43,513 nt of DNA. Source: a virus. Its lineage: Duplodnaviria > Caudoviricetes. Shown here piece after piece: positions 1-43,035 of this stretch. The notes under the pieces were generated by a model, which did no database searches, was not told the DNA's origin, and saw only the letters and a list, made by a program, of their open reading frames with translations. The first letter of the stretch is position 1. Every line of letters begins with the position of its first letter. Where the stretch lies: the IMG/VR virus record IMGVR_UViG_3300011403_000019, positions 1 through 43,513 of that record, one strand, 5' to 3'. The position numbers and the translations under genes are program-made.

Positions 1-13
1 CTATACAACGTAT

Positions 14-50
14 AAGCCGCGCGAGCCTCACAGCTTGCGCGGCTTTCTTC
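14..50 (+). terminator. Rho-independent terminator
   Basis: 13-bp stem AAGCCGCGCGAGC (14-26)/GCTTGCGCGGCTT (33-45) with one G-U pair and a 6-nt loop, followed by TCTTC. Confidence 0.65.
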
Positions 51-342
51 GTGTCTATTGTGCAACAGACATGAAAGACACACAGACAAGCGAGGCAGTG
101 TCAGCAGTAGCTGCGCACAGCCGAGCGCCCGCCACCGCATACGCCGCATCTACATCACATATAGCACATGTGCACTAGGAGCGCAGCGACACATACCCAC
201 TACACACGTAACTACTCAAACACACATATACATTGTATAAATCAACAATCAGCGACAAGTGGGTGTCGGCTCCGCCTCCTAGTGTAGATGTATAAGTCTA
301 GATCTAGTAGTTGTGTCAACTATACACACAACAGCATGTGGG

Positions 343-371
343 CTTGCATGTGATTTATATTCTGCTATAAT
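343..371 (+). promoter_or_regulatory. Sigma70-like early promoter (family copy 1)
   Basis: cTTGCAT-16 nt-TATAAT with TGn extended -10; near-identical elements at 5799, 8441, 42454, 43072. Confidence 0.75.
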
Positions 372-442
372 AAGTATACTGTCGAGGAAGATAGGTAGCA
401 TAAGTTGTGCTATATACAATGTATAACCAAGGAGATGTAGCT

Positions 443-1282
443 ATGTCACAACAACTCTGGCTCCCAATGCAGACTACTGCTGAACTCAATGCACAAGAAA
501 CTGCTAAAGTATTCGAGGACATCAATGCAGTAAGAGAACGTGCACCTGCACTATTCGCTACAACTGCACACCCACGTATGAGTGAGCGTTATAGCTTCAC
601 GAATACATATGACATTGTGTTAGCTATGCACAATCGCGGGTATCGTGTGAATAGCATTAGCGGTGGTACTAGTACGTATAAGAAACTAATGGTGCGTATG
701 CGTAATACTAACTACGATGTAAAGAATGGTGTATCATTCGCACCTGAGTTAGTACTGCTAGATAGCCATGATGGTACATCTAGGCTGAAGATGTTCCTTG
801 GTGCAATTAAGTTCGCATGCATGAATGGTATGATTGCTGGTGATATACTCTATGCACGCAGCTATCTACACTTTGCTCAAGATCTAATGGCACAAATACG
901 CCTCGACATGGATGACATCAACACGCACACAGTTAAGCTTATACAACGTATAGCTGCGATGCGTGAGCATAAGGTGACATATGCTGAGCGCATTATGTTG
1001 GCTGATACAGCAGTCAAACAACGCTATGGTGAGAACAAGGACGGCAGCTTTGTCGCTGATGTGCGTCAGTCATTCCTTGCTACACGTAGACCTGAAGACG
1101 AGAGCAATGATCTATTCACTGCAATGAACGTAGTACAGGAGAACGCACTGCGTGGTGGTGGCTACTATACTAACAACAATCGCGTACAGCATATCCGCGC
1201 TATCACTCAAGTAGATCGCAACGTACACATCAACCAAGCTCTTTGGCAGTGCGCTGAAGACATCATGCAGAAGGCGGCTTAA
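443..1282 (+). CDS. DUF932-like phage/plasmid protein
   Basis: RBS AAGGAG at 429-434, ATG at 443. Motifs SERYSF, PELVLLDSHDGTS and FACMNGMI, plus C-terminal DLFTAMNVVQEN...NQALW, resemble DUF932. Confidence 0.75.
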   Translation: MSQQLWLPMQTTAELNAQETAKVFEDINAVRERAPALFATTAHPRMSERYSFTNTYDIVLAMHNRGYRVNSISGGTSTYKKLMVRMRNTNYDVKNGVSFAPELVLLDSHDGTSRLKMFLGAIKFACMNGMIAGDILYARSYLHFAQDLMAQIRLDMDDINTHTVKLIQRIAAMREHKVTYAERIMLADTAVKQRYGENKDGSFVADVRQSFLATRRPEDESNDLFTAMNVVQENALRGGGYYTNNNRVQHIRAITQVDRNVHINQALWQCAEDIMQKAA

Positions 1283-1284
1283 CA

Positions 1285-1350
1285 ATGAGCGAGATAGTGT
1301 TATCGTGTAGCTGGGTCGTGATACTTGTACTAATAGTACTATTCGCATAG
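1285..1350 (+). CDS. Putative 21-aa hydrophobic peptide MSEIVLSCSWVVILVLIVLFA
   Basis: Read by hand; ATG 2 nt after the upstream stop; single TM-like stretch; weak RBS. Confidence 0.3.
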   Translation: MSEIVLSCSWVVILVLIVLFA

Positions 1351-1396
1351 GACGCAGCACCAAACACAAGGCGGGCTTCGCCCGTAGGGGAGCTAA

Positions 1397-2329
1397 ATGC
1401 TAGCGCAAGATTGGCTATATGGTCATCGTGTAGCTACACCATATGATGCACGTGTAGAGCGTCATCTTAAACTCCCAACGGAGTTCAATAAGCACAGCTC
1501 ACTCGCTGTGCTCAACCTATTAGCTGAGCGCATTGTCTTCACTGACGATGTGCCCAGCTTGCTCTATGATATGAATGACAACAGACAACTCACATTCGAG
1601 GGTGTACTTGGTAGTGCTAAACTACCCTATGACTGCTTCTGGATTGAATACAACACAATGATAGGCATGGGTACAGATGAGCCAGACTTAGATCACTGTA
1701 GCTATGGTGCGCTTATACAACGTATAGGCTCAATCGGTGTACGCATGTACATCATCATCGGCCTCAAGTGGAATGATGCTGACATGATAAGCACGCTTGC
1801 ATATGTAGTAGACTTCGATAAGTGGCCGCCTATTGAACCTAGTGTGAAGCATGGTGGTCGTATGGCTCTCACATTCTCTGTAGCATATGCATTCAACTAC
1901 GAACGCATAATGCGTGGTAAAGGCACCGCTGCAACGGCTGACTTGGGTAGTGTAGTGAATGAACTAATCTTCGGCATCTTCCTAGTAACACAGCCCAAGG
2001 TCTATAGTGATGAACAAGTCAAGTGGAAGGCGTCTCACAAACGCGCTCGTGTTGAACGTAACAAACCACCGCTACTTGAGTATAGAAAGATACGTCTGCA
2101 CATCTGCAAACCCAGCAAGCACTATACCACTCGACCAACTGGTATCGGTGGAGACAGTGTTGATACTGAGAGCGCCGCTGCTGTGCAACATCGTCGTTAC
2201 CACAAGGTCATGGGACACTTTCGACATTACGTCAATCACGAGCCGCCTCATACCGTCTGGATAGAGCCACACTATCGCGGTGATCCAGCACTAGGTGTGA
2301 CGTTCACAGAGAGAGATGTAACACGATGA
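1397..2329 (+). CDS. Hypothetical early protein with C-terminal His-rich H..GHFR...WIEPHYRG motif
   Basis: 310-aa ORF, GGGGAG RBS. Confidence 0.7.
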   Translation: MLAQDWLYGHRVATPYDARVERHLKLPTEFNKHSSLAVLNLLAERIVFTDDVPSLLYDMNDNRQLTFEGVLGSAKLPYDCFWIEYNTMIGMGTDEPDLDHCSYGALIQRIGSIGVRMYIIIGLKWNDADMISTLAYVVDFDKWPPIEPSVKHGGRMALTFSVAYAFNYERIMRGKGTAATADLGSVVNELIFGIFLVTQPKVYSDEQVKWKASHKRARVERNKPPLLEYRKIRLHICKPSKHYTTRPTGIGGDSVDTESAAAVQHRRYHKVMGHFRHYVNHEPPHTVWIEPHYRGDPALGVTFTERDVTR

Positions 2330-2568
2330 AGAAACGCAAACGCAGGTATATGTCTAATGGACGTGCATGCTTAATCATAGCTGATTGGGCAGCACAGAAT
2401 GACAGAGAGAACTATGAGCGTTATCGTGTTGTAGCTAGCCACATCAACATGTGGTACATGATATACATACCAACAGGTAAACAGATTGGCGATCCTAAGA
2501 TGCGTTGGCGTACTTGGTTGCGTAAGAACCATCCTGACATGTACAAGATAGTGTGGCCCAATGAATGA
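2326..2568 (+). CDS. Small basic hypothetical protein
   Basis: ATGA overlap with upstream stop. Confidence 0.6.
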   Translation: MKKRKRRYMSNGRACLIIADWAAQNDRENYERYRVVASHINMWYMIYIPTGKQIGDPKMRWRTWLRKNHPDMYKIVWPNE

Positions 2569-2794
2569 GGCATTGAACAATGTATGGCTACAACCGGGCA
2601 CACGTGCTCACATGCTTGTGTATCGTCCTATCACTAACACATGGCAACTATGGACAGCTACAAACAAACGCAGCGGCAATAGCGATACATGGTTTGGGAC
2701 TTACATGGAGTTGTATGCTGATGGAACCTGCATACAACATTACCGCTCTGAGACTGAGGTGCGAGAGATTACAGTAAGACCAGCATGTGAATAA
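2561..2794 (+). CDS. Hypothetical protein
   Basis: 8-nt overlap with upstream gene, operon context. Confidence 0.55.
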   Translation: MNEALNNVWLQPGTRAHMLVYRPITNTWQLWTATNKRSGNSDTWFGTYMELYADGTCIQHYRSETEVREITVRPACE

Positions 2795-2838
2795 CTAGGA
2801 TAACATCTATACAACGTATAACCAACGGAGTACAACGA

Positions 2839-3156
2839 ATGATACCTCTCGTAACATCACAGATTGACGACATGGACCGCGCTCGCATGGAGTTCATCGA
2901 CAAGTTGAACGACCATATACATAAGCTACGTGAGGAACTGCGCAGCAATGAGATCATACTGCATAGCGTAGTGCAATCACTTAGCGCACCTACAGATGAT
3001 ATGGCTGAGTTAGACATATCGCTGCATGAACAGAGGAAGGAGTCCGCCACCCACCGACCAATGATACTCACTGCTGATGAGCAGAAGCGTGTAAACCGTA
3101 TGCAACAGGCCCTCTTAGGAGAAGTAGGTAAGATCAATGCCGACCAAGACAACTAA
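2839..3156 (+). CDS. Hypothetical coiled-coil protein
   Basis: GGAG RBS directly after a TATAC box; helical composition. Confidence 0.65.
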   Translation: MIPLVTSQIDDMDRARMEFIDKLNDHIHKLREELRSNEIILHSVVQSLSAPTDDMAELDISLHEQRKESATHRPMILTADEQKRVNRMQQALLGEVGKINADQDN

Positions 3157-3349
3157 CTACACAGTCACTGTATTAGGTGAAGACTGCGGTGTGCTGAAGT
3201 ATGTAAGACAACGCCTTGCGTGGTTCTACGATGGTGAAATGCGTATGCTCTATCACCGTGATGCTGGCATCCGTAAGGTACGTGCTAGCATAGCTCGCGC
3301 TCTAGATGTACCTGTTGCTCAACTCAACATCAAATACAACAAGGAGTAA
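3137..3349 (+). CDS. Hypothetical protein
   Basis: 70-aa ORF filling the gap in a + strand operon. Confidence 0.55.
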   Translation: MPTKTTNYTVTVLGEDCGVLKYVRQRLAWFYDGEMRMLYHRDAGIRKVRASIARALDVPVAQLNIKYNKE

Positions 3350-3354
3350 TAACA

Positions 3355-4587
3355 ATGACTACCATGTCAAACACAGTATGCTTCTATAACAACGGCGAGT
3401 TTGATCGTCGCTCTCTCACTATGATGGGCTTGTCTGCTAAGAAGGACGATACAGCTATCGGCTTCTTTGGCACAGGCTTCAAGTACGCTATCGCTACACT
3501 ACTGCGCCTTGGTGCTACGATTGAAATCACTGCGCGTAGTGGTGAAGGCTATACAACGTATAACTTCTATTCAATCGGTGACAAGTTCCGTGGTAAGGAG
3601 TTTGAATGCATCTACTGTGAGAGTGAGCAAGATCGCATCGAGCTTCCATTCACCACACATCTAGGTGCTAACTGGAAAGCATGGCAAGCCTATCGTGAGC
3701 TATTCACCAACGCTAAAGATGAAGGCGGTGGCGTAGCTCTCATTGATGACCTCAAGGTTGCTGCTGCTGACATCGTTGTATCAGTGACAGACAACAACAT
3801 CGCTAAGGTGTTTGAGGAACATGATAAGTACTTCCTCAATGAAGAAGCTGTTAGCACTGGCTATCGCATGCGCTGCGTACAGAAACGCCAAACACATGAT
3901 AACGTGGTGTACTACAAATCCATGTACACAGGCACACGTTTAGACAAGCCAACGTTCTTCACGTACGACTATGTGAAGACTGTAGACTTGACTGAGGATC
4001 GCACACTCGCTGACACATGGTACATTCGTACACACATTGGCGAGCTATGGGCATGCAACATGGACTACGATACTCTCGTAGAATATCTGCCTAAGATCGC
4101 TAATCAAGACTACTTCGAGAACAGTCTTGACACAGGCTATCATGCAGGCAGCGAAGACTTCCTCAATGCGTGCGCTTATCTCAACAAGATGCATCGCCCT
4201 ATGCCTATGTGGGCGCGTGATATGTACATCAAGACACTACCATTCGATCAACAGATCGAGGCATACAAACCTACACGTCATCAGAAGGCACAGCTTGCTA
4301 AGGCTATCGAGATCCTCGCACACCATAAGTACATGATCGACTTGGAGAAGCTGCACCTATGCACCTCTCTACCTAGTGACGTACTCGGCTACTATCGTGA
4401 TGGTAACATCTACATCGCTAAGGAAGCGTTCGACCGTGGCTTTGAGAAGCTGCTAGGCACGTTGTATGAGGAATGGCTGCACATGCATGAACAGTGTGAT
4501 GACATGTCACGCAGCATGCAGAACATACTCGTAGATCGTGTAGCTTCACTAATGGAGCAGGTCTACGATATGGAACAGGTAGTGTAG
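3355..4587 (+). CDS. GHKL (HATPase_c-like) ATPase with permuted motif order, fused to a C-terminal zincin-like domain
   Basis: NNGE (G1-like), IGFFGTGFKYA (G2 box), WQAYRELFTNAKDE (N box); C-terminal LGYYRDGNIYI...TLYEEWLH; AAGGAG RBS. Confidence 0.7.
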   Translation: MTTMSNTVCFYNNGEFDRRSLTMMGLSAKKDDTAIGFFGTGFKYAIATLLRLGATIEITARSGEGYTTYNFYSIGDKFRGKEFECIYCESEQDRIELPFTTHLGANWKAWQAYRELFTNAKDEGGGVALIDDLKVAAADIVVSVTDNNIAKVFEEHDKYFLNEEAVSTGYRMRCVQKRQTHDNVVYYKSMYTGTRLDKPTFFTYDYVKTVDLTEDRTLADTWYIRTHIGELWACNMDYDTLVEYLPKIANQDYFENSLDTGYHAGSEDFLNACAYLNKMHRPMPMWARDMYIKTLPFDQQIEAYKPTRHQKAQLAKAIEILAHHKYMIDLEKLHLCTSLPSDVLGYYRDGNIYIAKEAFDRGFEKLLGTLYEEWLHMHEQCDDMSRSMQNILVDRVASLMEQVYDMEQVV

Positions 4588-4600
4588 CGTATGTGTAATG

Positions 4601-4643
4601 GCGGTGGTGTGCTAACAAGGTCGCGCATATAGCACGCCACCGC
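4601..4643 (+). other. 14-bp intergenic RNA hairpin
   Basis: GCGGTGGTGTGCTA/TAGCACGCCACCGC, one G-U pair, immediately followed by a TATAC box. Confidence 0.6.
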
Positions 4644-4666
4644 TATACAACGTATAACCAAGGAAC

Positions 4667-5065
4667 ATGACAATGAAATCACCAACCACGACTGATGAAG
4701 GCTACTACATCGACATCGTTAGCGATAACCCTCGCATGCCTGCACCTATGGTACAGACACACATTCGTCACCTTATGCTAGCAATCGAACTAGGTGACCT
4801 CGTAATAGTCGAGTGCATGCGTACTAACGACGACGTTACAGGCTACATCATCTGCGCTAGTGTAGTAGGCGCTGACAACAAGCGCGCTCTGCTACCTATC
4901 TGCGAACTACCGAACACTGCTGACCTGCTCGAAGGCTTTCGTCCGCCACGGGCAGCACAGAACCGCTTCGTCAAACCTACGCACACAGGACACTATGAAG
5001 TGTGCACGCTACATGACCCTGAAGAAGTCGCACTTGCGGAGGTAGCTGGCAAGGGTGCACACTGA
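4667..5065 (+). CDS. Hypothetical protein
   Basis: 132-aa ORF with AAGGAA RBS. Confidence 0.65.
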   Translation: MTMKSPTTTDEGYYIDIVSDNPRMPAPMVQTHIRHLMLAIELGDLVIVECMRTNDDVTGYIICASVVGADNKRALLPICELPNTADLLEGFRPPRAAQNRFVKPTHTGHYEVCTLHDPEEVALAEVAGKGAH

Positions 5066-5223
5066 TGCCACATGAATACGCACTGCACATGATGTGGCTA
5101 TACGCTAAGTACTACTTCTCAGCTATCCTCATCTACGGACTACTCTACATGCTACCAATCACACTCACTCTATATGGAGTTAAACAGTGGCTGAGAAGAA
5201 GACAATCCCGCAGCATGTCATAG
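5065..5223 (+). CDS. Small single-pass membrane protein (52 aa, absent from ORF track)
   Basis: TGATG coupling to upstream stop; MPHEYALHMMWLYAKYYFSAILIYGLLYMLPITLTLYGVKQWLRRRQSRSMS has a hydrophobic core and basic tail. Confidence 0.55.
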   Translation: MPHEYALHMMWLYAKYYFSAILIYGLLYMLPITLTLYGVKQWLRRRQSRSMS

Positions 5224-5885
5224 ATCAACGTGCTGGTGCTATTAACGAGAAGTTCCGCCCACGCAAACAGAAGTCAGAGTTCTACGATGTGTTCCGTCGC
5301 ATCAACATGCATGATGGTGACAAAGAACTATGCTGGGAGTGGAAGGGCGCACATGGTAAAGGCACACGCGGTGAATACAGACCGCGTGTGGTGATAGGAC
5401 AGAAGGACTACTACGTACATCGCATCGTGTATCAGCTCTATACAGGCTACACGCTGCAAACTGGTGATGTGATCAGGCACAACTGCGACAACTCATGGTG
5501 CTGCAATCCACATCACATGATCGTAGGCACACAAGCTGACAACGTTCAAGACATGCTCGCTCGCGAACGTGTAGGTATGCGCCTATTCTACGTCAAGCGT
5601 ATCATGCAGATGCTTGAGACTGGCTGCGATGCGTCATTCGTAACTGCTAAGATGAAAGAAGGCTACAACATACAGTTGGACGTATCAACTATACGTAAGA
5701 TCCGCATGCGTACATTGTATAAGCACGTTGAGTGGCCTTGGGGTGATGAGTACAAGGCCACACGTAGGAAGCGACTAGATGAGGTAAAGGCTGCTAAACT
5801 TGCATGTGTTTCTGAATGTGATATAATACTAGATGCTACCAACAGACAAGGAGACGATGATGGCAACGACAAAGATAAAGCCTAA
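5187..5885 (+). CDS. HNH endonuclease
   Basis: CWEWKG, HRIVY and VIRHNCDNSWCCNPHHM..GTQADN motifs; GTG start with GGAG RBS. Confidence 0.85.
   Translation: MAEKKTIPQHVIDQRAGAINEKFRPRKQKSEFYDVFRRINMHDGDKELCWEWKGAHGKGTRGEYRPRVVIGQKDYYVHRIVYQLYTGYTLQTGDVIRHNCDNSWCCNPHHMIVGTQADNVQDMLARERVGMRLFYVKRIMQMLETGCDASFVTAKMKEGYNIQLDVSTIRKIRMRTLYKHVEWPWGDEYKATRRKRLDEVKAAKLACVSECDIILDATNRQGDDDGNDKDKA
5799..5827 (+). promoter_or_regulatory. Promoter family copy 2 (inside HNH gene 3' end)
   Basis: cTTGCAT-16 nt-TATAAT with TGn. Confidence 0.7.
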
Positions 5886-6312
5886 AGAAGAACCGCTGCC
5901 GCTTGAAATGCGCGTTATACAATGTATAGCCGACTTCACAGCACCTAAGACTACGCAAGATAGCGTTGACCAACTAGCTGCTGAGTACATGACTGCAACA
6001 CTGCTGCGCTCCAACGCAGAGAAACGCTACAACGCTATTAAGTCAGTCATCAACGATGAGTTCGCTGTCAAGATCGCTAAGGTGCGTAACGAAGCTGCTG
6101 AGAAGATGCTGAAGGCTACTGACAACCTCATAGGTAGTGATTGGCAGTTCGACTTCGCAGCTAACAAGCCTGCTACACGTGTTGACGTTGATGAGTTGAA
6201 GACTGAGCTTATCAAGCGTGGTGTGAAGGCTTCGTTAGTAGATGAAGCTGTGACGAAGGTTGAGAAGAAAGCTACGCCTGCGCTTATCATCACAGCTAAA
6301 CCAGTGGTATAA
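5857..6312 (+). CDS. Hypothetical protein
   Basis: AAGGAG RBS before ATG 5857. Confidence 0.7.
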   Translation: MMATTKIKPKEEPLPLEMRVIQCIADFTAPKTTQDSVDQLAAEYMTATLLRSNAEKRYNAIKSVINDEFAVKIAKVRNEAAEKMLKATDNLIGSDWQFDFAANKPATRVDVDELKTELIKRGVKASLVDEAVTKVEKKATPALIITAKPVV

Positions 6313-6318
6313 CCTCCC

Positions 6319-6681
6319 ATGACAGACGACAACAACAAAGTCGTCAAACTGCGCCAGCCCACGGTAACACGTGCGGCTGGCGTTGTTGTTGATGACCCTA
6401 TCAATCCCAAGTCGCTGCTCAACATGACTGACGTTGAGCAGGATGCATTCTTGCAAACACTACGTGACCGTCGCCTTCGCGCTGCTGAACTCATTAAGTC
6501 AGCACAACAAGCTAAGCATCATGCTAGTAGCATCGCATCAGCTATCAAGTTGGAGCGCAAAGCTGAGCAAGCACAGCGCCAGTATGAGAAAGCCAACAAG
6601 GCGCTTGAGCGTCTAGAGGAACTTCTATACGATCTACGTGCGCTCACACTGCAACACGCTGACATCGACATCACCAAGTAG
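6319..6681 (+). CDS. Hypothetical coiled-coil protein
   Basis: 120-aa ORF, helical Ala/Gln/Lys/Glu-rich C-terminus. Confidence 0.7.
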   Translation: MTDDNNKVVKLRQPTVTRAAGVVVDDPINPKSLLNMTDVEQDAFLQTLRDRRLRAAELIKSAQQAKHHASSIASAIKLERKAEQAQRQYEKANKALERLEELLYDLRALTLQHADIDITK

Positions 6682-6706
6682 CTATACAACGTATAAGGAG
6701 ACTGCA

Positions 6707-6976
6707 ATGGTTAACTATGTGCAGAGAGCTAGAGATATACGTCACACCCTTAAGACAATGGGTACAGAGCAAGGTGTGATTAAGTGTCTAGAGCTACTCG
6801 CTGAAGACAACGAAATGCTACGTCAGGAAATGACGCAGATCATCACAACTGTAGATAAGATGGCTGACATCATCGCTAACATCGCTACAGTAGGACAGAA
6901 GCTGAAGCAAGACTGGGAGAAGGTCCGCCAGTCGATGCACCCGCAGAATGAAGCAGGTGAGGACATCAAACAATGA
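6707..6976 (+). CDS. Hypothetical coiled-coil protein
   Basis: TAAGGAG RBS overlapping a TATAC box; ATG 6707. Confidence 0.7.
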   Translation: MVNYVQRARDIRHTLKTMGTEQGVIKCLELLAEDNEMLRQEMTQIITTVDKMADIIANIATVGQKLKQDWEKVRQSMHPQNEAGEDIKQ

Positions 6977-7266
6977 CATTCCCACCTGATAACCAGTTCA
7001 AGATAGACATACCAGAGTACAGTGATTGGCACTGCTACATGTTCGGTGCCACACCTAAACATGGTGGCTTCGTGTGGCGTCCGCACAAAGGGTATGAACC
7101 TAACTGGTTCTGGCGTAAGATGCAATACATCTGCTTCGGCAACACATGGGTAAAGGAGCCTATCAAGAATGCCATCGACTATACAACGTATAACTACGGC
7201 GAAAGCACTGTTGGACCTAATGAACGAACAAACAGAAGGGAGCAAGGATTGGGCACGCCTAGCTGA
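6973..7266 (+). CDS. Trp-rich hypothetical protein
   Basis: ATGA coupling; PNWFWRKMQYICFGNTWVK segment. Confidence 0.6.
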   Translation: MTFPPDNQFKIDIPEYSDWHCYMFGATPKHGGFVWRPHKGYEPNWFWRKMQYICFGNTWVKEPIKNAIDYTTYNYGESTVGPNERTNRREQGLGTPS

Positions 7267-7393
7267 CCGCTGCATCGAGTTGCTGATGACACGTCACATA
7301 GAACAACTACAGGAGCTAGAAGATAATGCTAATAAAGCCAACAGTGGACCTAACGCTGCCGTGGATAGACTACAGCACGATGAGCGCAGTTAA
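7169..7393 (+). CDS. Hypothetical helical protein overlapping both neighbours
   Basis: AAGGAG RBS at 7153-7158; protein-like composition. Confidence 0.5.
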   Translation: MPSTIQRITTAKALLDLMNEQTEGSKDWARLADRCIELLMTRHIEQLQELEDNANKANSGPNAAVDRLQHDERS

Positions 7394-8408
7394 TACGTGT
7401 CCACGTTGGGGTATCATTCATAGCTGGCACGGTAAACGTTTGCCTAGCGGCAATGAACGAGTGCTACCACTCGAAGCCGGTCGCGCTATGCATGACGTGT
7501 TCGCATGTTGTCGCTTCTTCGACTTGCTAACTGACTTCAACAGCAAAGAGCCAACTAACTATACAAAGTATACCGCAATCAACGACTACGCAGGAAAGCT
7601 ATTCAACAATGCTGCTTTTCCAGATCGCTGGCAACAGGCGCACACTTACTTTAATAGCGCGGAAGATGCCGAGACACGCTGCATGCAGATGTGTCTCAAT
7701 CTCTTGGAAACGTCTGGCTATCACGATGATCCGAGAGACAATAGACGAACGCAATCTAACCTTGAAAGTGCGGCTATATCCTACGTACAGCGTTATCCGC
7801 TTGGTCGCTTCATACCAATCTGTAACGACGACGCAAGCATCATCGGCATAGAAGTACCATTCGATGTCACACTGCATGATCACGGCGATAAGCCTATTGT
7901 TCGGTTCATTGGTAGGGTCGATGCTGTGTGCCTTGATACTCTTAGACCTAATGACACCATACCTGAAGTACATGAGAACAAGACTGGTAGTCGCATTGAT
8001 ACTGTCTGGAGCAGCAGCTTTGACACTTCTAATCAAGTCACTGGATACTGTGTCGCGATGTCAACTGTCCTAGACAAGCCCATTCGCAACGTCATCATGT
8101 GGGGCCTACAGATACCAGTGCCTAAGTCTAGTAGCTACAGCGACGGCATCATGCGTTATCCTACTACACGCAATGAAGACACATTCTACGAATGGCATAA
8201 GTGGGTAATGCACACACTCGCAACCATACTACAATACGACGACGAGCCTACTAACGCACCTATGTACACACATAGCTGCAACCGCTACTTCCGTGCATGC
8301 GCCTTCATCCCACTATGCTGTGAGAATGAAGAACAACGTAAGCACATATTCGATAACGAGATGGTAGTAGATCGCTGGTCGCCACTAGCAGAAACACTTG
8401 ATCCATAG
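7326..8408 (+). CDS. PD-(D/E)XK Cas4/RecB-like exonuclease
   Basis: N-terminal CPR, GRAMH, IEVPF, GRVDAV, ENKTG, QVTGY and C-terminal C..C..C cluster (Fe-S staple pattern). Confidence 0.8.
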   Translation: MLIKPTVDLTLPWIDYSTMSAVNTCPRWGIIHSWHGKRLPSGNERVLPLEAGRAMHDVFACCRFFDLLTDFNSKEPTNYTKYTAINDYAGKLFNNAAFPDRWQQAHTYFNSAEDAETRCMQMCLNLLETSGYHDDPRDNRRTQSNLESAAISYVQRYPLGRFIPICNDDASIIGIEVPFDVTLHDHGDKPIVRFIGRVDAVCLDTLRPNDTIPEVHENKTGSRIDTVWSSSFDTSNQVTGYCVAMSTVLDKPIRNVIMWGLQIPVPKSSSYSDGIMRYPTTRNEDTFYEWHKWVMHTLATILQYDDEPTNAPMYTHSCNRYFRACAFIPLCCENEEQRKHIFDNEMVVDRWSPLAETLDP

Positions 8409-8440
8409 TTGGGAGTGAGCGTGTGTCGCTCCGCTCCTAG

Positions 8441-8469
8441 CTTGCTTGTGATTTAGTGTATGCTATAAT
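8441..8469 (+). promoter_or_regulatory. Promoter family copy 3
   Basis: cTTGCTT-16 nt-TATAAT with TGn, upstream of the ATPase gene. Confidence 0.75.
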
Positions 8470-8496
8470 AGTACTTACACATCAGGGAGATACCAC

Positions 8497-9273
8497 GTGG
8501 AGTTGAAGATAGAGAAACCTACTGACATGCTATCGCGTATGTCAATGATACTATGGGGTGATGCAGGTTGTGGTAAGACTACACTAGCTGCAACTGCGCC
8601 CGGTCGTAAGCTGTTCATCGCATTAGATCCTGACGGTGATATGTCTATTCGTAACATGCCTAATTGGGCACGTATCAACCTGACAAGTGAGAAGTCTGTA
8701 GACATTGTTAAGGAAGGAATGAAGCCTGACCCCTATACATTGTATAACATGCTGAATGACTTCGACACTGTGATCGTAGATAGCCTCACGAAGTTCTCTG
8801 AACATGCACTACGTCACGCTGTCAACGTCGCACCTAAGTCTAGCATCGAGTCGCCGGGTTTGAATGGCTACGGTATGCGTAACATCTACGTTGGTGCCTT
8901 CGTGTCTAACATGATCCGTATCACTGGCATGCTCAACAAGCACATCATCTTCATCACGCACGAGAAAGATGCAGATCGTAATAGCGATGGTGGTGTGATC
9001 GGTGTGAGCATGATGCTCGGCGGTCAACTACCTAACATGACGAGCAAGGACATCAGTGAAGTATGGAACATGCGTGATCAAGGTGGCAAACGCTATATCT
9101 CTATACGCCCTGAGCGGTTGAGAAGCCCGATGAAATCACGCATGTTCGACATGTCAGGCAACACCTCGTTCGAGTGGAAGTACAACGCTAACAAGAACGA
9201 AGGCAACACTATAGCTGACTGGTGGGACACATTCACCAAAGGCGGCTACGTTAAACTCCCAATCCCGAAATAG
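8497..9273 (+). CDS. AAA_24/Sak4-like P-loop ATPase (recombinase)
   Basis: Walker A GDAGCGKT, Walker B VIVDSLT, IIFITHEK; lies between exonuclease and SSB-like gene. Confidence 0.8.
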   Translation: MELKIEKPTDMLSRMSMILWGDAGCGKTTLAATAPGRKLFIALDPDGDMSIRNMPNWARINLTSEKSVDIVKEGMKPDPYTLYNMLNDFDTVIVDSLTKFSEHALRHAVNVAPKSSIESPGLNGYGMRNIYVGAFVSNMIRITGMLNKHIIFITHEKDADRNSDGGVIGVSMMLGGQLPNMTSKDISEVWNMRDQGGKRYISIRPERLRSPMKSRMFDMSGNTSFEWKYNANKNEGNTIADWWDTFTKGGYVKLPIPK

Positions 9274-10194: not shown

Positions 10195-10239
10195 CGCCGT
10201 GCACACTTGTATTCCCCCTGTGTGTGCGGCGTTTGCTTT
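10195..10239 (+). terminator. Hairpin, probable terminator
   Basis: CGCCGTGCACAC/GTGTGTGCGGCG (two G-U pairs) followed by TTTGCTTT. Confidence 0.55.
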
Positions 10240-10290
10240 ATACAACGTATAGCTGGCTGCGAAACCTAGCAGCATATAAGGAACATCGCT

Positions 10291-17100: not shown

Positions 17101-18482
17101 TTTATCTGTGTCTGTATATCAGCGATCCTAGCACGGTAGTCATCCATCGTCGTGAGTATGTCTGACCCGTACGATGTCAACCAATGTGAGGCAGCAACTG
17201 CGCGCTGTTTCTCAGGCACCATCGCTGACCAAGCATCAAGCACAGGGCCATCTATAGTGAGGCTGTCTGATGCTACGCGATCATTCAACACCGCGCCTGT
17301 GTTACGTGTGTATAAGTCTTCAGCTTCACGTGCTACTTGACCACCGTGTATATCACGGATCATACCAAGAGGCTGTGCGTTCTGATCAATGAAACGCTCA
17401 CGCGCTGTACGGCGTAGGTTTTGTATACGTCCCCACATACCGCTGTTAGCTACAGCATCAATCTCCGATGATGGACCTAGCTGTTGTACAGGACCACCGT
17501 CTATAATAGCTTGACCTGTCGGTGCATTAGGGCTAACGCTGTAGTTTAGGTGCGGATCATTGTTAAGGTTGATTTCAACTTGACTAGGGTGTATCGCCTG
17601 CCTAGTCCTACCACGCACAGCAGCTACGAATGCAGCGGCAGCGCCTGTTGCACCTACCACACCAGCTAGTGCAGGAATGCCAGCAGGATCTTCTGGTGTA
17701 GGTGTGAATGCAGTACTCTTACCCTGTGCATAGCGCATGCCCTGATCTATAGCTAGACCAGCACCGGCGTTGATAGCTACGTTCGTAGCGTTATAAGGTA
17801 TGGTCAACGGTGTGAGTGCTTCACCTACACGCACAGCACCACGTACTGCGGGATTAGCCATGACACTCGCGGCAGCAGCACTCGTACGTGCAATGGCATT
17901 AGCACCGCTAAGAACAGGTCCAACAGGTGCACCTATGAACGCACCACCTATAGCTTCGGCAGCACTCTCTGTCCAACTGCGCTCATCTTCGGTGCGCTCA
18001 TCACCTAATAGTCGTCTACTAGTATCACGCCACTTAGCTGCAAGGTAGTGTGGACCGCTCAACTGTTCAGTAGAGAAGTCTTCAAACGCTTTCGACTTCT
18101 GATAGTCAGCGATACCACTCTTTAGTTGTTCATCAGTTAACGAAGGATCACGCCGTCTCCATGACGCTATTACATCTTGCAGATGCTTGAGCTTGTTATC
18201 ATCAGCACCTTCAACTTGAATGCGCTTCTGAAACTCATCTGAGAACTTGGTGTCCTTAGAATACGCATCGTAGAGTGCGCCTGCACCTTGATACACAGTA
18301 GGCCCGAAGTTGATTAAGTCTGTAGGCAGTGTCATCACACCTACAGCAGCAGACTTCAAGTGGTTCCTAACCCACGGCTCATCTGCGCTCGCAGTCTTAG
18401 CGTCTGTAGCTACACCGTCAGGATCGTAGCCGAACTTGGATATGAAGTCCTCACGTGTATACGCTGTATAACCGTCAGACAT
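14160..18482 (-). CDS. Large internal virion (ejection) protein
   Basis: 1440 aa, last gene of the structural arm, helical Ala-rich; position typical of podovirus core proteins. Confidence 0.6.
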   Translation of the reverse strand: MSDGYTAYTREDFISKFGYDPDGVATDAKTASADEPWVRNHLKSAAVGVMTLPTDLINFGPTVYQGAGALYDAYSKDTKFSDEFQKRIQVEGADDNKLKHLQDVIASWRRRDPSLTDEQLKSGIADYQKSKAFEDFSTEQLSGPHYLAAKWRDTSRRLLGDERTEDERSWTESAAEAIGGAFIGAPVGPVLSGANAIARTSAAAASVMANPAVRGAVRVGEALTPLTIPYNATNVAINAGAGLAIDQGMRYAQGKSTAFTPTPEDPAGIPALAGVVGATGAAAAFVAAVRGRTRQAIHPSQVEINLNNDPHLNYSVSPNAPTGQAIIDGGPVQQLGPSSEIDAVANSGMWGRIQNLRRTARERFIDQNAQPLGMIRDIHGGQVAREAEDLYTRNTGAVLNDRVASDSLTIDGPVLDAWSAMVPEKQRAVAASHWLTSYGSDILTTMDDYRARIADIQTQINNPYTHQSSLAGLRREEAALQTDLQRLVADDPTARQRIPARPQNSVFAARNAFIVDPDPQVAAYRNAVQARNRELLDRQVRSGRLSSVVADEWHRRNPYYVQAVSDPHGDLTGWSRTFADLSDKARTSRLRASEGTSKGALREGPLRSFSREIPQPPTTPNAPETRITQPLHPLSAAKQYTDKTLREAAHTTARNQLFRLLTRDAVGNPSHLVTNGRIRAVQSGQGRYWFTPAQLKSQQFRHLEDSPNIGIEWENGRARVWEFGDPEVARAARMEPVQLSGLMKAVTVITNNNKFWTTGPGNAPFAFINAYYNTAIAMLTHRNDRVFGPISHRLHQFLPERVARGINAVVPDISSVIVGIPYYAIRNLIQLQTHYLTRPIARALAQQVAPFQALQTALGPRAYNAVIAAASRAALWADNAEAVAVRRGGAGHGTHSIDNIPVVRNSFSAMKEHVPAPMRHVWQLYTDILDSFHMADKVQYYTQNHAMLSRQYGGNIPPARIERLLDETRNIAGDMSLVPGSKIMQDVERMVPYMTQTKLGAYHLIRNMFGRDTALTTLPRMMVGMGAIAQSYYFMTHWNDESRKMLWEQTPEYDRYRYAYLPAPKLALAHFQGKTLPFSEDLYYKIRIPPDIAGMVAGTAAFFQMMGAIPSSATIKPLSSDIGKVFIDSFTPAMPPVLQILLAQSGKRLDPSTSETRGGNWIRDSGSLFRAGPNAESVSNLGEISNSTSLMMAAMFGAMGTHIAMATDVMLHSANYNKGTGPSPLPTPRESANYGEGLRRATGEVFDRTVSRVPEIPLVWQNKERYSAMTPTWQVTSQNNVHISSIVGMRNDLGKAAMERRQAAVDAGGIPEKAMTSALLTQIANDIAAWQYPSGDLGKLKAQQAKIRAAVRGIDAQYNMPLEQRTQEKNKYVKLQNANLEQQRLATLYAEQVISDKYGQALQPLLRGRQINMSTLDKIMRENSGRPAAAPVGTQQQPVP

Positions 18483-23170: not shown

Positions 23171-23197
23171 TGTTGCACCTCCTATACAGCGTATACC

Positions 23198-24826: not shown

Positions 24827-25021
24827 TCAATCCAAACACGCATCTGTGCGTACTGTTGTATTCCTAACACGCCCACCGACCCATGTATCAGTCACGCGCT
24901 TCTCTGTATTGATAACACCGCCACGACACTTAGGCACTTCAACATCATCTACCCATCTACCGCCTGTCACACGACACCCACAGAGTACGAGTATACAAAG
25001 TATAACCGCAGCCGTACGCAT
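24827..25021 (-). CDS. Small lipoprotein (spanin-like or exclusion)
   Basis: TGATG coupling; MRTAAVILCILVLCGC signal peptide with lipobox-like LCGC. Confidence 0.55.
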   Translation of the reverse strand: MRTAAVILCILVLCGCRVTGGRWVDDVEVPKCRGGVINTEKRVTDTWVGGRVRNTTVRTDACLD

Positions 25022-29532: not shown

Positions 29533-29561
29533 CTTATAGCATGATAACTGAAAGTTGTCAA
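29533..29561 (-). promoter_or_regulatory. Sigma70 promoter for the tail fibre operon
   Basis: Minus strand TTGACA-17 nt-TATAAG with TGn; TATAC box 5 nt upstream of -35. Confidence 0.7.
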
Positions 29562-29581
29562 GGGGTTATACAATGTATATG

Positions 29582-34115: not shown

Positions 34116-34125
34116 TGTAACTCCT

Positions 34126-35076
34126 TTAGTCGTTCACTACAGCGTGGGTGCGGTATTGCTTCCACGTGGCGAACTGACATTGCGTGATGACACGCTGTCC
34201 GTAGCCGTCAATCGTCCACGGTGCAGTGAGGTCAACATTCTTCATGTTGTTATCACCGAGGATATGAAGGCGCAGGTAGGTGTCGTTGAGGAAGTAAGCA
34301 CGATCAACCGGGCAGCTTTCATCATAGATGATGGGTACGCCGTTGTGGCTGATACCATCAAAGCCGAGGTCCATCATACGCTTGCCGCTGCTTGTGTTCG
34401 TGAGCGGAATAGTGAGCTTGCTACGAACGGCAGCACGATACAGGCGATAGTGATTGCGTCCAGCAATGATAACCTTCGGACGCTCTGTACCTTGTTTGAG
34501 GTCAAGGAGAACGTCATCATACGCTTCCTCGATATTCGTCGCGTTAAGAGTGCCTGCGAAGTCATATGACGATGAACGCCACTGTACTTCTGTCGCACGA
34601 TCAACACCAGCGAGTGATCCAACAGTAGGATCATCAGGAATAAGCAGCGCAAGTCCATTCGGATCATTGCCACCACCCAAGCCGTAGAGATAGCCGCTGA
34701 ACTTCTCCTTGATGCTCAACTCAAGAGCCTCAAGTTTACCTTGCAGCAGCTTCACAGCAGCCTGTTCACCCTTGTTCTCGTCTTCTTCCTGATTGCTGAT
34801 GATAACAGTACCAGCAATACGGCTCCAACGATATTCAAGCTTGATGAACTCCTGCGTCTGCACGACTGGCAAGCTGTCGTAGTAGCTATAGCTGCCAACC
34901 GAGGGATTGCGTCCAGTCAACAGCGGGTTCGTGATGTTGTAACCGCTGCTCTCATTCTCGATACGATCACGCGCAAAGCACCAAGCCATAAGTGCGTTGC
35001 TCTGCATAGCGGCGACAATGAGCTTCTTACGCGAACGCTCAATAGTCGTCGCCAGTACGTTCTGGAGTACGGGCAT
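34126..35076 (-). CDS. Major capsid protein
   Basis: 316 aa after scaffold; HK97-fold-like features (GLALLI, GVPIIYDESCP, YFLN). Confidence 0.85.
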   Translation of the reverse strand: MPVLQNVLATTIERSRKKLIVAAMQSNALMAWCFARDRIENESSGYNITNPLLTGRNPSVGSYSYYDSLPVVQTQEFIKLEYRWSRIAGTVIISNQEEDENKGEQAAVKLLQGKLEALELSIKEKFSGYLYGLGGGNDPNGLALLIPDDPTVGSLAGVDRATEVQWRSSSYDFAGTLNATNIEEAYDDVLLDLKQGTERPKVIIAGRNHYRLYRAAVRSKLTIPLTNTSSGKRMMDLGFDGISHNGVPIIYDESCPVDRAYFLNDTYLRLHILGDNNMKNVDLTAPWTIDGYGQRVITQCQFATWKQYRTHAVVND

Positions 35077-38556: not shown

Positions 38557-40147
38557 ATCTGTGGCCCCTTGGATTTGCAGCCTTCTTATCATGTTCCTGC
38601 CACAGCATCCAGCTAGGAACACGCTCGTTCTCTGGTGTTACGTATCTACCGATGTCGGGCATGTCAGAGAGTAAGTAGCGGGTGGTGTCCATTGCATGGT
38701 CGTTTCGATCCATCGGCTTGTCGATACGTTCACCTGACGTAGACTGTTGCCAGAAATACCCTGTGCACTCATCCATCCACCAATCAAGCTTTGCATTGCA
38801 GAACAGACGTGGTGATGATGCAGTTCGTGTGATTGGATGGAGGAGTCGATAATTAATGTTAAGGTAACCTCCAACTTTAACAATTCCGTTCGTGATGTCA
38901 TTGTTACCTCGCTTCATGTAGATGCCATCATCCTTAAACATGTCAGCGATGGTCTTACCTACTGTACGTTTGTGCACTGTCTTGCGACCGAAGATACTAG
39001 GGTCAGCTTGTATCTTGTGCATCTCATCTACTTCGACATTCCATTCACCGCGTATACGTCGTATAGCTGCAATCTGTCTGTCGAGTGTCATTTCCTTCTC
39101 ATAGAAACCGTCGCATATGACAACGTGACCTTCAGGTGTTACGAATGCTAGTATGTAGCATGACTGCTGCGCTTGTCCGTAGTCGTAACCTTCTATCCAG
39201 TTCGGGTGATAATGTGTTTCGTGATAACCATCAAGTAGTGTTGTGATGTGGCCCTCTTGCAGCATGTGTACGCTGCTATCGTACTGCGGGTACACCAAGC
39301 CTTCATAGGCCACCCATTTGCCCAATAGGAAGCGGTCGCGCTGTTGACCACTGTACATCGTTTCGAGGGTTTGGATAAAGTCGCCACCCTCAGCTTCATG
39401 TACGTGACGCAGTTCATAGGTGCTACCTTCTATGACTTCGATGAGTAGCTGCGGTTTACCGTTGTCATCTAGCACAGGCTTACGGTCTACGTCACGCACG
39501 CATATGAGGTCATCTGTAATGTAGCCACCAGCTTTGTATTGTACGATAGGACGTACTAATTTCGTGTATACCCAATTGCCTGTAGGATTGCATGTGAGCA
39601 TCATCCAACGAGGACCAGTGACAGGCATAGTAGGATCATCGCCAGTGTAACGCGCTCTACCGCGCAATCGACCGAATAAGTCAAGGAAGTCCTTGTGTGT
39701 TATCTCTGGGTCTTCCACTTGATCCACTATCACCCAATCGAATGTAGCGGAGAGCAAATTTGATGAACTGCTTTCTGTCTTCGTACCTTGTTGCGCTATA
39801 TACCTGAAGTAGATGGTTGTACCGTTCTTCAGGTGGCAGATGTTGTCTCCGTTCTGCCCAACTGCGAATGACACGATCCACGTCGGGGGGCACCATTTAA
39901 GGAACTCCTTACGTATAGTGTCGTTTAGCTTAGGATACGTCGAGCGCGATATAAGACCAGTGCTACCCGGATACACGTCAGCAAGCTGGATGGCCTTAAT
40001 AACCGCAGCAGTAGTCTTGCCGTTACCGAAGCCTCCACCATAGATTTGTACCTTAGCTTTGCTATGCAAGAAGCGATCCTGCAAGCTGCCTTCTTTAAGC
40101 AGTAGCTCAGGACGTTCTACTAGTGCGTTGTTACGCGGTCGTGCCAC
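38549..40147 (-). CDS. terL: Terminase large subunit
   Basis: GGFGNGKT Walker A, VIVDQVED Walker B variant, LTCNP coupling motif, GYDYG and DHAMDTTRY nuclease motifs. Confidence 0.92.
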   Translation of the reverse strand: MARPRNNALVERPELLLKEGSLQDRFLHSKAKVQIYGGGFGNGKTTAAVIKAIQLADVYPGSTGLISRSTYPKLNDTIRKEFLKWCPPTWIVSFAVGQNGDNICHLKNGTTIYFRYIAQQGTKTESSSSNLLSATFDWVIVDQVEDPEITHKDFLDLFGRLRGRARYTGDDPTMPVTGPRWMMLTCNPTGNWVYTKLVRPIVQYKAGGYITDDLICVRDVDRKPVLDDNGKPQLLIEVIEGSTYELRHVHEAEGGDFIQTLETMYSGQQRDRFLLGKWVAYEGLVYPQYDSSVHMLQEGHITTLLDGYHETHYHPNWIEGYDYGQAQQSCYILAFVTPEGHVVICDGFYEKEMTLDRQIAAIRRIRGEWNVEVDEMHKIQADPSIFGRKTVHKRTVGKTIADMFKDDGIYMKRGNNDITNGIVKVGGYLNINYRLLHPITRTASSPRLFCNAKLDWWMDECTGYFWQQSTSGERIDKPMDRNDHAMDTTRYLLSDMPDIGRYVTPENERVPSWMLWQEHDKKAANPRGHRYG

Positions 40148-40648: not shown

Positions 40649-40650
40649 AG

Positions 40651-41304: not shown

Positions 41305-41590
41305 TTGCTTTCTTCTGTGTTTTAGGTGCGCCACCCTGCTTACGGAATATCTCAGTGATCATCGCTTGCTGTGGGTTGCTACTCTTAGGCTGTCGGTTGA
41401 CAGGAATAGCTGGGCGTTGCTGTCTACCAGCCTGCTTACCAGTTGGTACAGGTGCGTTAGGATTACCTACAGCAGACTGCATCATCTGTGCGCTGATAAG
41501 ATCATCAATAGGGTTGTTGCTCTGTTGAGGCATACCCTGCGGTTTAGGAGGCATACCACGTGGAGGCATACCCGGTGGCATCATTGGCAT
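41282..41590 (-). CDS. Pro/Gln/Met-rich disordered protein
   Basis: GAGGA RBS, low complexity. Confidence 0.55.
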   Translation of the reverse strand: MPMMPPGMPPRGMPPKPQGMPQQSNNPIDDLISAQMMQSAVGNPNAPVPTGKQAGRQQRPAIPVNRQPKSSNPQQAMITEIFRKQGGAPKTQKKANAGPPSR

Positions 41591-41594
41591 AGTG

Positions 41595-41897
41595 CTATTC
41601 CTCATCTACAGGTTCAGGGTCAGCAGCTTCAGCTTCCATGTTCTCCATTTCAGCTTCATCGTCTGTCTCAGGAGGAACGCCAGCTTGTTTACTAGCGGCA
41701 TCGTCCATCCACTGACCCACTTCATCTACGTCACTCTTATCTAGACCTAGATGCTTTAGTACTTCAGCAATAGCCTGTGGTGGTAGCTGTTGCATGACAG
41801 CAGGATTTTGGTTGATCTGCTGTATGAAGGCATCCATTTCAGGAGTGCCTGCTACTGGTAGCTGTTGACCAGCTTCACCCCTTGATGGTTGTTCCAT
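41595..41897 (-). CDS. Acidic hypothetical protein
   Basis: ATG abuts upstream stop; Glu/Asp-rich tail. Confidence 0.6.
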   Translation of the reverse strand: MEQPSRGEAGQQLPVAGTPEMDAFIQQINQNPAVMQQLPPQAIAEVLKHLGLDKSDVDEVGQWMDDAASKQAGVPPETDDEAEMENMEAEAADPEPVDEE

Positions 41898-42287
41898 TTA
41901 CTTGTTCACCGTATTGAGGAAGCCACCACCGCTGTTGCCTGACTTCTCAACAGGATACGGGTTAGGTGCCCATGTCGGTGTCATCTGTGCTTGGAAGGCT
42001 TCTTTCTCAGTGATAGTAGTAGCGTGGAGCGGTACAACTACATACGTAGCAATAGGCCGCACACCACCCAAGTTCAAACCATCAGCTTGTACAGCTTGCA
42101 CCTGCTTGATGCTGAGATCGGTGTTAGCACCTACGCCGTTAGCGAGTGCACGAGCTACTTCGCCAAAGTGTTGACCACCTACTGAGTTGGTGAGACGAGC
42201 TACACTACGCATCGTAGCGGTTGCTTGATTGATAAGTGCATGAGGTGCACCGAATACGTTATTCCATCCGCCTTGCCATGCTGGCAT
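41898..42287 (-). CDS. First gene of the structural arm, hypothetical
   Basis: AAGGGAG RBS, 129 aa. Confidence 0.7.
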   Translation of the reverse strand: MPAWQGGWNNVFGAPHALINQATATMRSVARLTNSVGGQHFGEVARALANGVGANTDLSIKQVQAVQADGLNLGGVRPIATYVVVPLHATTITEKEAFQAQMTPTWAPNPYPVEKSGNSGGGFLNTVNK

Positions 42288-42453
42288 GATGCTATCTCCC
42301 TTGCGTCATGTAGTGGGAACCTATAATACACTGATGCATACTTTAGCCGAAATGTCAATAGATACATTCGGTTATACAATGTATACGCATCTATACTAGG
42401 ACGGGGACGCTAGTCCCCGATTGCGACTTCCCCTCCCGTTAAACTACATGTGA

Positions 42454-42482
42454 CTTGCATGTGATTTAGTTTGTGCTATACT
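42454..42482 (+). promoter_or_regulatory. Promoter family copy 4
   Basis: cTTGCAT-16 nt-TATACT with TGn. Confidence 0.7.
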
Positions 42483-42488
42483 ATATAC

Positions 42489-42603
42489 ACTGCACGCATG
42501 TAATGTACCAAGACTGCCACTGCATGTGTGTAGTAGTCTACTTGACATGGTAGCTCCTACTTACGCCTCTAGTAGTATAACAACTACTAGGGGCGTATTT
42601 TTT
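42489..42603 (+). ncRNA. Candidate ~115-nt small RNA
   Basis: Bracketed by promoter 42454-42482 and terminator 42562-42603; 14-bp 5' stem 42489-42502/42521-42534. Confidence 0.5.
42562..42603 (+). terminator. Rho-independent terminator
   Basis: 15-bp stem TACGCCTCTAGTAGT/ACTACTAGGGGCGTA followed by TTTTTT. Confidence 0.8.
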
Positions 42604-42628
42604 ATATGTGGTATAGACTAGAGTACTA

Positions 42629-43035
42629 CACATATAGCGCGTTTGGGTTTTTCTCATACGCATAAACACTCATAAATACACACGCAGGGGCTTGAGACAG
42701 TGCTCATCCTCCAGCTCACACGCACTGCTATGCTCCGCGTTTGGGAATTGCCGGGGGAGTGTCTCGCTGCAACACATGTAGTATAGCAGCAACACGCTAT
42801 ATGCAGGGGCGAAGCGGCCTCGCACCCACTACATATAGCCTATGTCACCATGCTATATGTGGTGTGTAGTAGGTTGGCACGCTTGCTGTTTATACGTTGT
42901 ATAGCTGTTAGCTCCGCTTTAATTGGCCTGTTATGCGTGCGCTATATGTGCAAGCTATTGATATGATTGCAGTATCTTTGCGCGGTAGTGCTACACATAT
43001 GCACACAACGCACGCTGATATGCACCACATATAGC
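42629..43035. repeat. CACATATAGC decamer cluster (iteron-like)
   Basis: Forward at 42629 and 43026 (also 156); reverse at 42852 and 42941; 1-mismatch copy at 42830. Confidence 0.65.

Follow-up and report, generated by a model that had tools for sequence, protein, structure and literature searches.

A clade-wide array of TATAC-N3-GTATA palindromes in uncultured podoviruses, with a candidate reader in the first early gene

The virus record IMGVR_UViG_3300011403_000019 (Caudoviricetes; 43,513 nucleotides, the whole of which is analyzed here and called the window) contains 22 perfect copies of a palindromic box, TATAC-N3-GTATA, made of two 5-bp arms and a 3-nt spacer. The array is real, selected, and present throughout a clade of podoviruses; it is of a known but unexplained kind, and it comes with a testable candidate for the protein that reads it, gp1, the product of the first early gene. 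Dispersed phage palindrome arrays, namely the Cluster O repeats, have been described earlier without a reader or a function. The clade of the window offers a direct test, as it provides one candidate gene, a 13-bp site, and lineages with TACAC, TGTAC, CATAC, and TCTAC arms, and these natural variants predict which gp1 should bind which arm. If gp1 is the reader, it would represent a new DNA-binding fold and a genome-wide, repressor-like control in phages without integrase; otherwise, the array keeps its value as a strong marker of an abundant clade of uncultured soil and sediment phages. Neither the motif nor the clade was found in the literature searched, which excludes most subscription papers.

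Results

Number and Distribution of the Boxes

A preliminary description of the sequence had listed 22 perfect boxes, and all 22 positions are exact (Table 1). Dinucleotide-preserving shuffles yield a mean of 0.05 boxes and never more than 1 in 100 shuffles, and Markov models of order 2–4 expect 0.06–0.17. When synonymous codons are resampled with the proteins fixed (1000 runs), the mean is 0.30 and the maximum 2, versus 11 distinct boxes observed within genes (12 if the one shared by two overlapping frames is counted twice). TATAC-N3-GTATA is the sole enriched palindrome of the window, and only the 3-nt spacer length is enriched. As claimed, fourteen boxes fall within the first 10.3 kb and about half are in coding sequences, the 11 in-gene boxes producing recurrent peptides of the IQRI, IQCI, YTTY, YTKY, YTLY, and IRRI types. 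The remaining 11 occupy the 5.6% of the window that is non-coding, and five of them are within 18 nt of a start codon. Density falls from 16 boxes in the 11.5 kb of the control and early region to 5 in the 28.1 kb of the late arm, a trend also found in four other near-complete genomes, and boxes of the early arm are more evenly spaced than random (coefficient of variation 0.53, P = 0.01).

Two of the earlier details stand less well. Among the reported near-matches, those at 9345, 12405, and 32550 have one mismatch each, whereas that at 36173 has 5; one-mismatch boxes at 366 (over a TATAAT −10 hexamer) and 42603 had been overlooked. The reported preference for one spacer reading on the + strand is weak: AAT and ATT differ at the centre only, and two of the six boxes in the minus-transcribed arm read GCT and GTC on that strand. 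In the window, spacers are of the R-N-Y type in 20 of 22 boxes, and AAC is on the sense strand in 9/9 early-arm cases.

The Boxes Mark a Clade

Judged by their distribution, the boxes are a marker of an uncultured podovirus clade. They are found in 59 of the 62 loci retrieved through the Sak4-like protein (two of the three box-free loci are outliers at 25–27%) and in all 18 larger records, with 3–23 copies each, versus 0–1 for a reversed control pattern. In 880 kb of DNA of the clade, 383 sites have a spacer of 3 nt; no other spacer length reaches more than 3 sites. Five distant phages, two of them with DUF932, contain neither the box nor a comparable array (of the two DUF932 genomes, 52.7 and 54.8 kb long, 50 kb each was read).

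A box directly follows the capsid stop codon in eight relatives; the window has none at this place (34115–34126). In the relative G001, a 46-aa gene upstream of DUF932 lies between two copies of a box with its ribosome-binding site (G001:28078–28253), which suggests that boxes may be starting points for the insertion of genes by recombination.

Selection Acts on the DNA of the Boxes

Comparison among relatives shows that selection acts on the boxes at the DNA level. In-gene boxes are kept in place in 11 of 13 homologues of the terminase, 43 of 59 of the Sak4-like gene, and 24 of 33 of gene 5857 (counts that include near-duplicates), and the arms stay constant while spacer codons change the residue between them, giving IQCI, IHCI, IQRI, ILSI, IQSI, and IRSI. 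Both isoleucines of such boxes are coded by ATA, which makes up 201 of the 723 isoleucine codons of the window. Likewise, the two tyrosines of the Sak4 box are TAT in 43 of 50 and 50 of 52 cases, versus 29/54 and 4/54 for two other tyrosines of the same protein. In the exonuclease gene the box occupies six different codon positions among lineages. The preliminary description had proposed a protein-binding site in DNA rather than an mRNA element and had suggested looking for conservation in related phages; the retention of in-gene boxes, with fixed arms and varying spacer codons, supports this view at the sequence level.

Spacers differ between lineages (AAC, AGT/ACT, TCA/TGA, AAT) and family-wide are read in both orientations (AGT 24 and ACT 11, ATT 14 and AAT 13, AAC 12 and GTT 6, TGA 9 and TCA 8). 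Some arm variants are private to a lineage: TACAC (7 in G002, 4 in G006), TGTAC (10 in G008), CATAC (7 in G015), and TCTAC (4 each in G004 and G005), each having 0–2 copies in six strict genomes. Among the variant sites of six genomes, 37 are changed in one arm and 4 in both, and the Sak4 site of G002 and G015 has switched to precisely the variant of its own lineage. Because independent half-sites show lineage-specific tolerance, we infer a co-evolving dimeric reader encoded by the phage.

An earlier suggestion that the boxes act as N4-type hairpins fares badly. The stem energy is between +0.4 and −1.0 kcal/mol (−0.3 to −0.8 kcal/mol when computed as DNA), a negligible hairpin; the loop is variable and arm variants break the pairing without compensation, contrary to the stable fixed-loop DNA hairpins of N4-type promoters. 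No D-x-D-x-D motif or RNA polymerase match was found in the large virion proteins, the 1440-aa protein having no family or PDB match and the 1202-aa protein no RNA polymerase-type family match. Together, these data point to recognition as double-stranded DNA, by a phage protein evolving along with its site, and not to a hairpin.

Boxes and Promoters

A strict sigma-70-like pattern identified 17 promoters in 12 genomes, 15 of which have an exact box within 260 nt, although the density of the early arm alone makes such nearness common. Boxes lie downstream of the predicted promoter in 11 placements, upstream of −40 in 7, and overlap it in 2. Since overlap is rare, classical occlusion would not be the main mode of action. 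At late promoters the box ends 2–33 nt upstream of TTGACA, and a fixed activator geometry was rejected on account of this spread. Hence, most boxes lie either where early transcripts would run or ahead of late promoters, and simple occlusion and fixed activation both appear poor fits.

An identical G+C hairpin (7-bp stem, GAA loop) adjoins the late-promoter box in G002, G003, G009, G010, and G016 (e.g., L200:1659–1675); near its late promoter the window has a different hairpin, at ~42395–42412.

gp1 and Other Candidate Readers

The gene starting at 43296 had been taken for a small protein; it is the beginning, 72 residues, of a gene of ~285 aa cut by the end of the window. About 650 bp are absent there, gp1 being whole in G001 (288 aa) and in a 44,166-bp contig (protein P0002). 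Treating the window as a closed circle was rejected, as relatives show the missing ~650 bp and the join creates a false gp1 read-through.

Upstream of gp1, 10 of the 11 copies for which there is sequence have an exact box within 1 kb, and 7 of 10 have one no more than 9 nt from the stop codon. In G008, the exception, gp1 is flanked on either side by variant boxes. gp1 is restricted to the clade (53 matches among 1.84 billion representatives), and its identity among seven relatives is 27–54%. Such fast evolution would allow it to absorb drift in specificity. In the predicted model (pLDDT 78), a helical N-domain is followed by a β-hairpin and a loose basic linker, which leads to a helical C-domain. 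A search of the ESM Atlas with gp1 returned only unnamed viral clusters (0.91), and no contig of relatives with a divergent gp1 was found for the analysis of covariation within the clade. Among the proteins proposed earlier as readers, DUF932 and the HNH nuclease (see Discussion) are weakened, and gp1 now appears the best candidate.

DUF932 seems a weaker candidate, two other phages with DUF932 lacking the array. The genes 3355–4587, 2326, 6973, and 7169 were rejected because they are absent from the complete G001, which has 23 boxes, and gene 1397 because it is absent from the box-rich G016; hence none of these is needed. The terminase small subunit seems a less likely reader, since its HTH-like (helix-turn-helix) stretch is almost invariant and cannot explain the drift of the arms. 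A further possible candidate, the protein encoded at 9873–10160 between the DUF669 and helicase genes, is basic, 95 aa long, and conserved in 94 relatives with invariant R, K, H, and F residues; it matches no known family or fold, and its model is poor (pLDDT 69, pTM 0.43). Neither a ParB domain nor a MatP-like protein was found among the window proteins.

A Second Group of Podoviruses

A scan for the box pattern also retrieved G019, whose early arm contains 8 boxes; in the G019 loci tested, tblastn gave no match to any window protein. In further contigs, themselves picked by the box, it flanks a first early gene of 170–220 aa divergent from the terminase. Among 80 loci (L403–L482) picked instead by the terminase of this second group, only 3 have the exact box; 33 have a palindrome with 5-bp arms in at least 3 copies, differing by lineage and in one case a simple TA run, and many of the 80 hold little of the early arm. 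Matching palindromes bracket the first early gene of the second group in 23 of 37 cases checked, a 24th pair being dropped as a G+C hairpin. Bracketing of the first early gene by a lineage palindrome is thus common to the window clade and the second group, a link that appears to be one of layout and not of shown homology. In L409 and L436, 15- and 16-bp versions of one palindrome occur in the same genome.

The Phage Genome

The record is that of a 98%-complete virus, an uncultured podovirus of ~44 kb with converging arms, the early and replication genes on the + strand and the virion genes on the − strand. A family scan of 48 window proteins identified DUF932, HNH nuclease, exonuclease, Sak4-like protein, helicase, family A polymerase, terminase, portal, capsid, and tail fibre; it gave no match for integrase, repressor, sigma factor, RNA polymerase, or primase. 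The replication block (7326–14159) comprises the exonuclease, the Sak4-like protein, a DUF669 protein, a RecD/Dda-like helicase, and the family A polymerase, which has a UDG-like N-terminal domain, with no primase detected. Cultured phages are all distant, the best identities being 30% for the capsid, 25% for the polymerase, and 27% for DUF932, with no match for gp1. The major capsid protein (34126–35076) is 96–98% identical across relatives whose other proteins are 30–85% identical, yet only 24–30% identical to any GenBank phage capsid. A search of GTDB genomes with the capsid protein gave a single match (68 residues, 37%) and none of prophage type. DNA of the phage occurs mainly in sequencing runs of freshwater sediment, and no RNA run is listed among the runs that contain it.

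In three relatives, a secreted-type protein with a sorting signal is encoded after the DUF932 gene (L189:9873–10685, with similar genes in G007 and G008), and the G005 copy passes TIGR03370, VPLPA-CTERM. We take the distribution of this signal to hint at an alphaproteobacterial host; the host is probably non-actinobacterial. Gene 3355–4587, absent from G001, codes for 410 aa with a weakly sacsin-like ATP-binding N-terminus and a C-terminal HEXXH. The word AATT is scarce in the early arm (1–10290; 2 observed vs 11.5 expected from shorter words) and less depleted in the late arm (29 observed vs 43 expected).

Table 1. Boxes and adjoining features of the window
Feature	Position	Strand	Remarks
Box AAC	2..14		5 nt past gp1 stop codon, just before terminator; near-identical and close relatives (L041, L011)
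Intrinsic-terminator-like hairpin and T-run, putative end of gp1 transcript	16..49	+	From sequence; same layout in relatives
Box ATT, intergenic	227..239		~145 nt upstream of predicted DUF932 start site
Predicted sigma-70 promoter CTTGCA-17-TATAAT	343..378	+	One-mismatch box 366–378 overlaps −10 hexamer
Box AAT	413..425		17 nt ahead of DUF932 start codon
DUF932 gene	443..1282	+	In-gene box at 940; weaker reader candidate
Box in gene 1397–2329, IQRI	1714..1726		
Box, intergenic	2808..2820		18 nt ahead of start 2839
Box in gene 3355–4587, YTTY	3550..3562		
Box, intergenic	4644..4656		10 nt ahead of start 4667
HNH (His-Me finger) gene, clade-conserved	5187..5885	+	HTH-like C-terminus by eye; rival reader candidate
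Box in gene 5857–6312, IQCI	5916..5928		~88 nt downstream of predicted promoter 5799
Box, intergenic	6683..6695		11 nt ahead of start 6707
Box in overlapping ORFs 6973–7266 and 7169–7393	7180..7192		
Box in exonuclease gene 7326–8408, YTKY	7560..7572		Position varies among relatives
Box in Sak4-like gene, YTLY	8734..8746		
Box, intergenic	10239..10251		39 nt ahead of helicase start
Box over DNA polymerase stop codon	14146..14158		Where arms converge
Box in codons 5–9 of 1440-aa gene, YTAY	18458..18470		
Box, intergenic	23183..23195		12 nt ahead of minus-strand start 23170
Box in small gene 24827–25030, ILCI	24992..25004		
Box 29567–29579 and predicted tail-fibre promoter TTGACA-17-TATAAG	29533..29579	−	Box 5 nt upstream of promoter
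Box in terminase large subunit, IRRI	39053..39065		Two ATA codons
Box 42373–42385 and TTGACA hexamer	42353..42385	−	Box 14 nt upstream of hexamer; head of late arm
Box in divergent control region	42891..42903		392 nt upstream of gp1
gp1, first 72 codons	43296..43513	+	First early gene; lead reader candidate

Discussion

The explanation that we put first, tentatively and with slightly less than even confidence, is that the boxes are conserved double-stranded palindromes on which a dimeric phage protein, probably gp1, would dock, repressing its own gene and damping the early arm. It is very likely that the two 5-bp arms, separated by the fixed 3-bp spacer, serve as half-sites for a phage dimer. 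That this dimer is gp1 we regard as an even call. Just as evenly balanced is the following step, in which accumulating gp1 would occupy the boxes found every ~0.8 kb in the path of early transcripts and before ribosome-binding sites, the occupied boxes acting as a roadblock or as a long-range repressor. At the late promoters, boxes upstream of the −35 hexamer would leave it uncovered, and therefore the net effect would be a shift from early to late expression. The damping would extend to any co-infecting relative that shares the boxes.

Several observations weigh against this explanation. Boxes overlap the promoter in only 2 of the 20 placements near the 17 predicted promoters (raw counts, with no null model). 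For gp1, Pfam, PHROG, NCBIfam, and PDB gave no family, and three libraries gave no clear fold match. For a nearly invariant arm, a reader with the low identity of gp1 is less expected than a conserved one. The comparison of gp1 with the first protein of the second group is not significant (hhalign probability 0.2–0.3%, E 0.23–0.38), although in the same register each time. Finally, the similarity of palindromes within the second group tracks the terminase (partial r 0.33) more than the first protein (partial r 0.12, permutation p 0.087; 24 loci).

The shared layout raises a wider possibility, which we consider doubtful: two unrelated, apparently non-integrating groups of podoviruses may share an undescribed class of reader. 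Such a reader would be a fast-evolving helical protein, without a known fold, encoded by the first gene; a lineage-private palindrome would flank this gene on both sides and recur along the early arm, and gp1 of the window would be a distant member whose sites have also spread into late genes. If this were true, protein and site would drift together, and non-integrating phages would have a self-recognition code that times their own early genes and silences co-infecting kin.

Among the alternatives to repression by gp1, the least unlikely is a structural role comparable to that of MatP at matS, in which a phage reader, gp1 or other, would organize, protect, or pull in the DNA that is injected first. 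The 13-bp 5-3-5 layout with mostly R-N-Y spacers parallels matS, GTGACRNYGTCAC (PMC6907758, consulted as an excerpt), and the even spacing of the early arm, the relocation rather than loss of the box within the exonuclease gene, and the unfixed distance to late promoters are all consistent with it. However, half of the boxes are concentrated in the small non-coding fraction, some of them immediately before start codons, boxes are found in the late arm too, and a MatP-like protein was sought among the window proteins and not found.

We give a somewhat lower chance to the HNH protein as the reader, either as a repressor through its HTH-like C-terminus or as a nuclease nicking for recombination-dependent or strand-displacement replication. 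Its gene is present in all relatives covering the region, with 57–81% identity, and residues H98, C100, C105, H110, and N119 are invariant in 16/16; a conserved helix suits a conserved arm, and nicking suits a genome with no primase match among the 48 proteins scanned. Yet the putative recognition helix is identical in the CATAC-tolerant G015 and the strict G014 and G016, the protein matches no HTH family, and tblastn found no match to it in the examined stretches of the second group, where the same box occurs. As for nicking, the placement of half of the boxes at gene starts and stops is better suited to transcription. The gene is fixed and syntenic across the clade with its catalytic residues intact, unlike a mobile homing endonuclease.

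Slightly less probable again is that the phage exploits a protein of its host, either a transcription factor or a nucleoid protein, as the reader. The occurrence of the same box in two phage groups without a detected shared gene speaks for it, as does the lack of a recognizable repressor in the window, but lineage-specific spacers and arm variants inside one clade, and the many different palindromes among close relatives within the second group, are better suited to a phage-encoded reader. Least credible are single-stranded DNA or RNA hairpins (N4-type promoters, priming, or translational operators) and by-products of recombination shuffling early genes: the perfect 5-bp stem with a 3-nt loop, the uniform sense-strand AAC of the early arm, and the 46-aa gene of G001 fit them, but the stems are barely stable, variants are uncompensated, loops are read in both orientations, no polymerase signature was detected in the large virion proteins, and in-gene boxes have no common flanks and lie in different frames.

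Comparison with Known Systems

The comparisons below are confined to what excerpts of the cited papers contain. The closest likeness is with the Cluster O mycobacteriophages, whose 17-bp dyad repeats TGTTCGG-NNN-CCGAACA are present in 34 copies in Corndog (PMC4351075); binding of a dimeric protein was proposed, the authors doubted a transcriptional role, and reader and function are unproven. Both systems have invariant inverted arms with a variable 3-nt spacer, tens of copies, intergenic and intragenic sites, enrichment in one arm, largely kept positions, and little orientation bias (PMC4351075). They differ in the arms, which in the window are 5-bp and AT-rich instead of 7-bp, so that the Cluster O sequence is not that of the window; moreover, the boxes belong to a podovirus clade, their arm tolerance drifts by lineage, they bracket one orphan first gene, and those within genes have been traced across much more distant relatives.

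Other palindromic systems resemble the array in part. KorB of plasmid RK2 binds the palindrome OB at 4–10 bp or at 45 to >1000 bp upstream of promoters and represses without covering them, as the reader of the boxes would, but it is a ParB-type CTPase clamp that needs KorA (PMC11790492), and no ParB domain was found in the window proteins. matS of Escherichia coli, read by the dimeric MatP, is also a 13-bp 5-3-5 palindrome with an R-N-Y spacer, in 23 copies in one region; it is, however, chromosomal, with one site per 35 kb versus one per 0.8 kb here, its outer arm letters differ, and no MatP homologue was found here (PMC6907758). Aca operators were discarded as different sites (PMC12658196).

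The stoperators of Cluster A mycobacteriophages (L5 gp71, Bxb1 gp69) are 13-bp sites, 24–34 per genome, for which a block of elongation has been proposed (PMC3029335). The window likewise has many 13-bp sites (22), with a lineage-specific spelling similar to that which in Cluster A is tied to the phage reader (PMC3029335). A stoperator-like role, as the preliminary description suggested, is thus plausible in function. Yet stoperators are asymmetric, oriented with transcription, and mainly intergenic (PMC3029335), whereas the site of the window is symmetric, occurs in both orientations without family-wide polarity, and lies within genes in half of the cases. Their reader is the HTH repressor of a temperate phage, whereas here neither an integrase nor a prophage copy nor an HTH repressor turned up, a remote HTH being able to escape profiles. 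In conclusion, the array would work like known dispersed systems, but it falls outside the stoperator family as that is defined.

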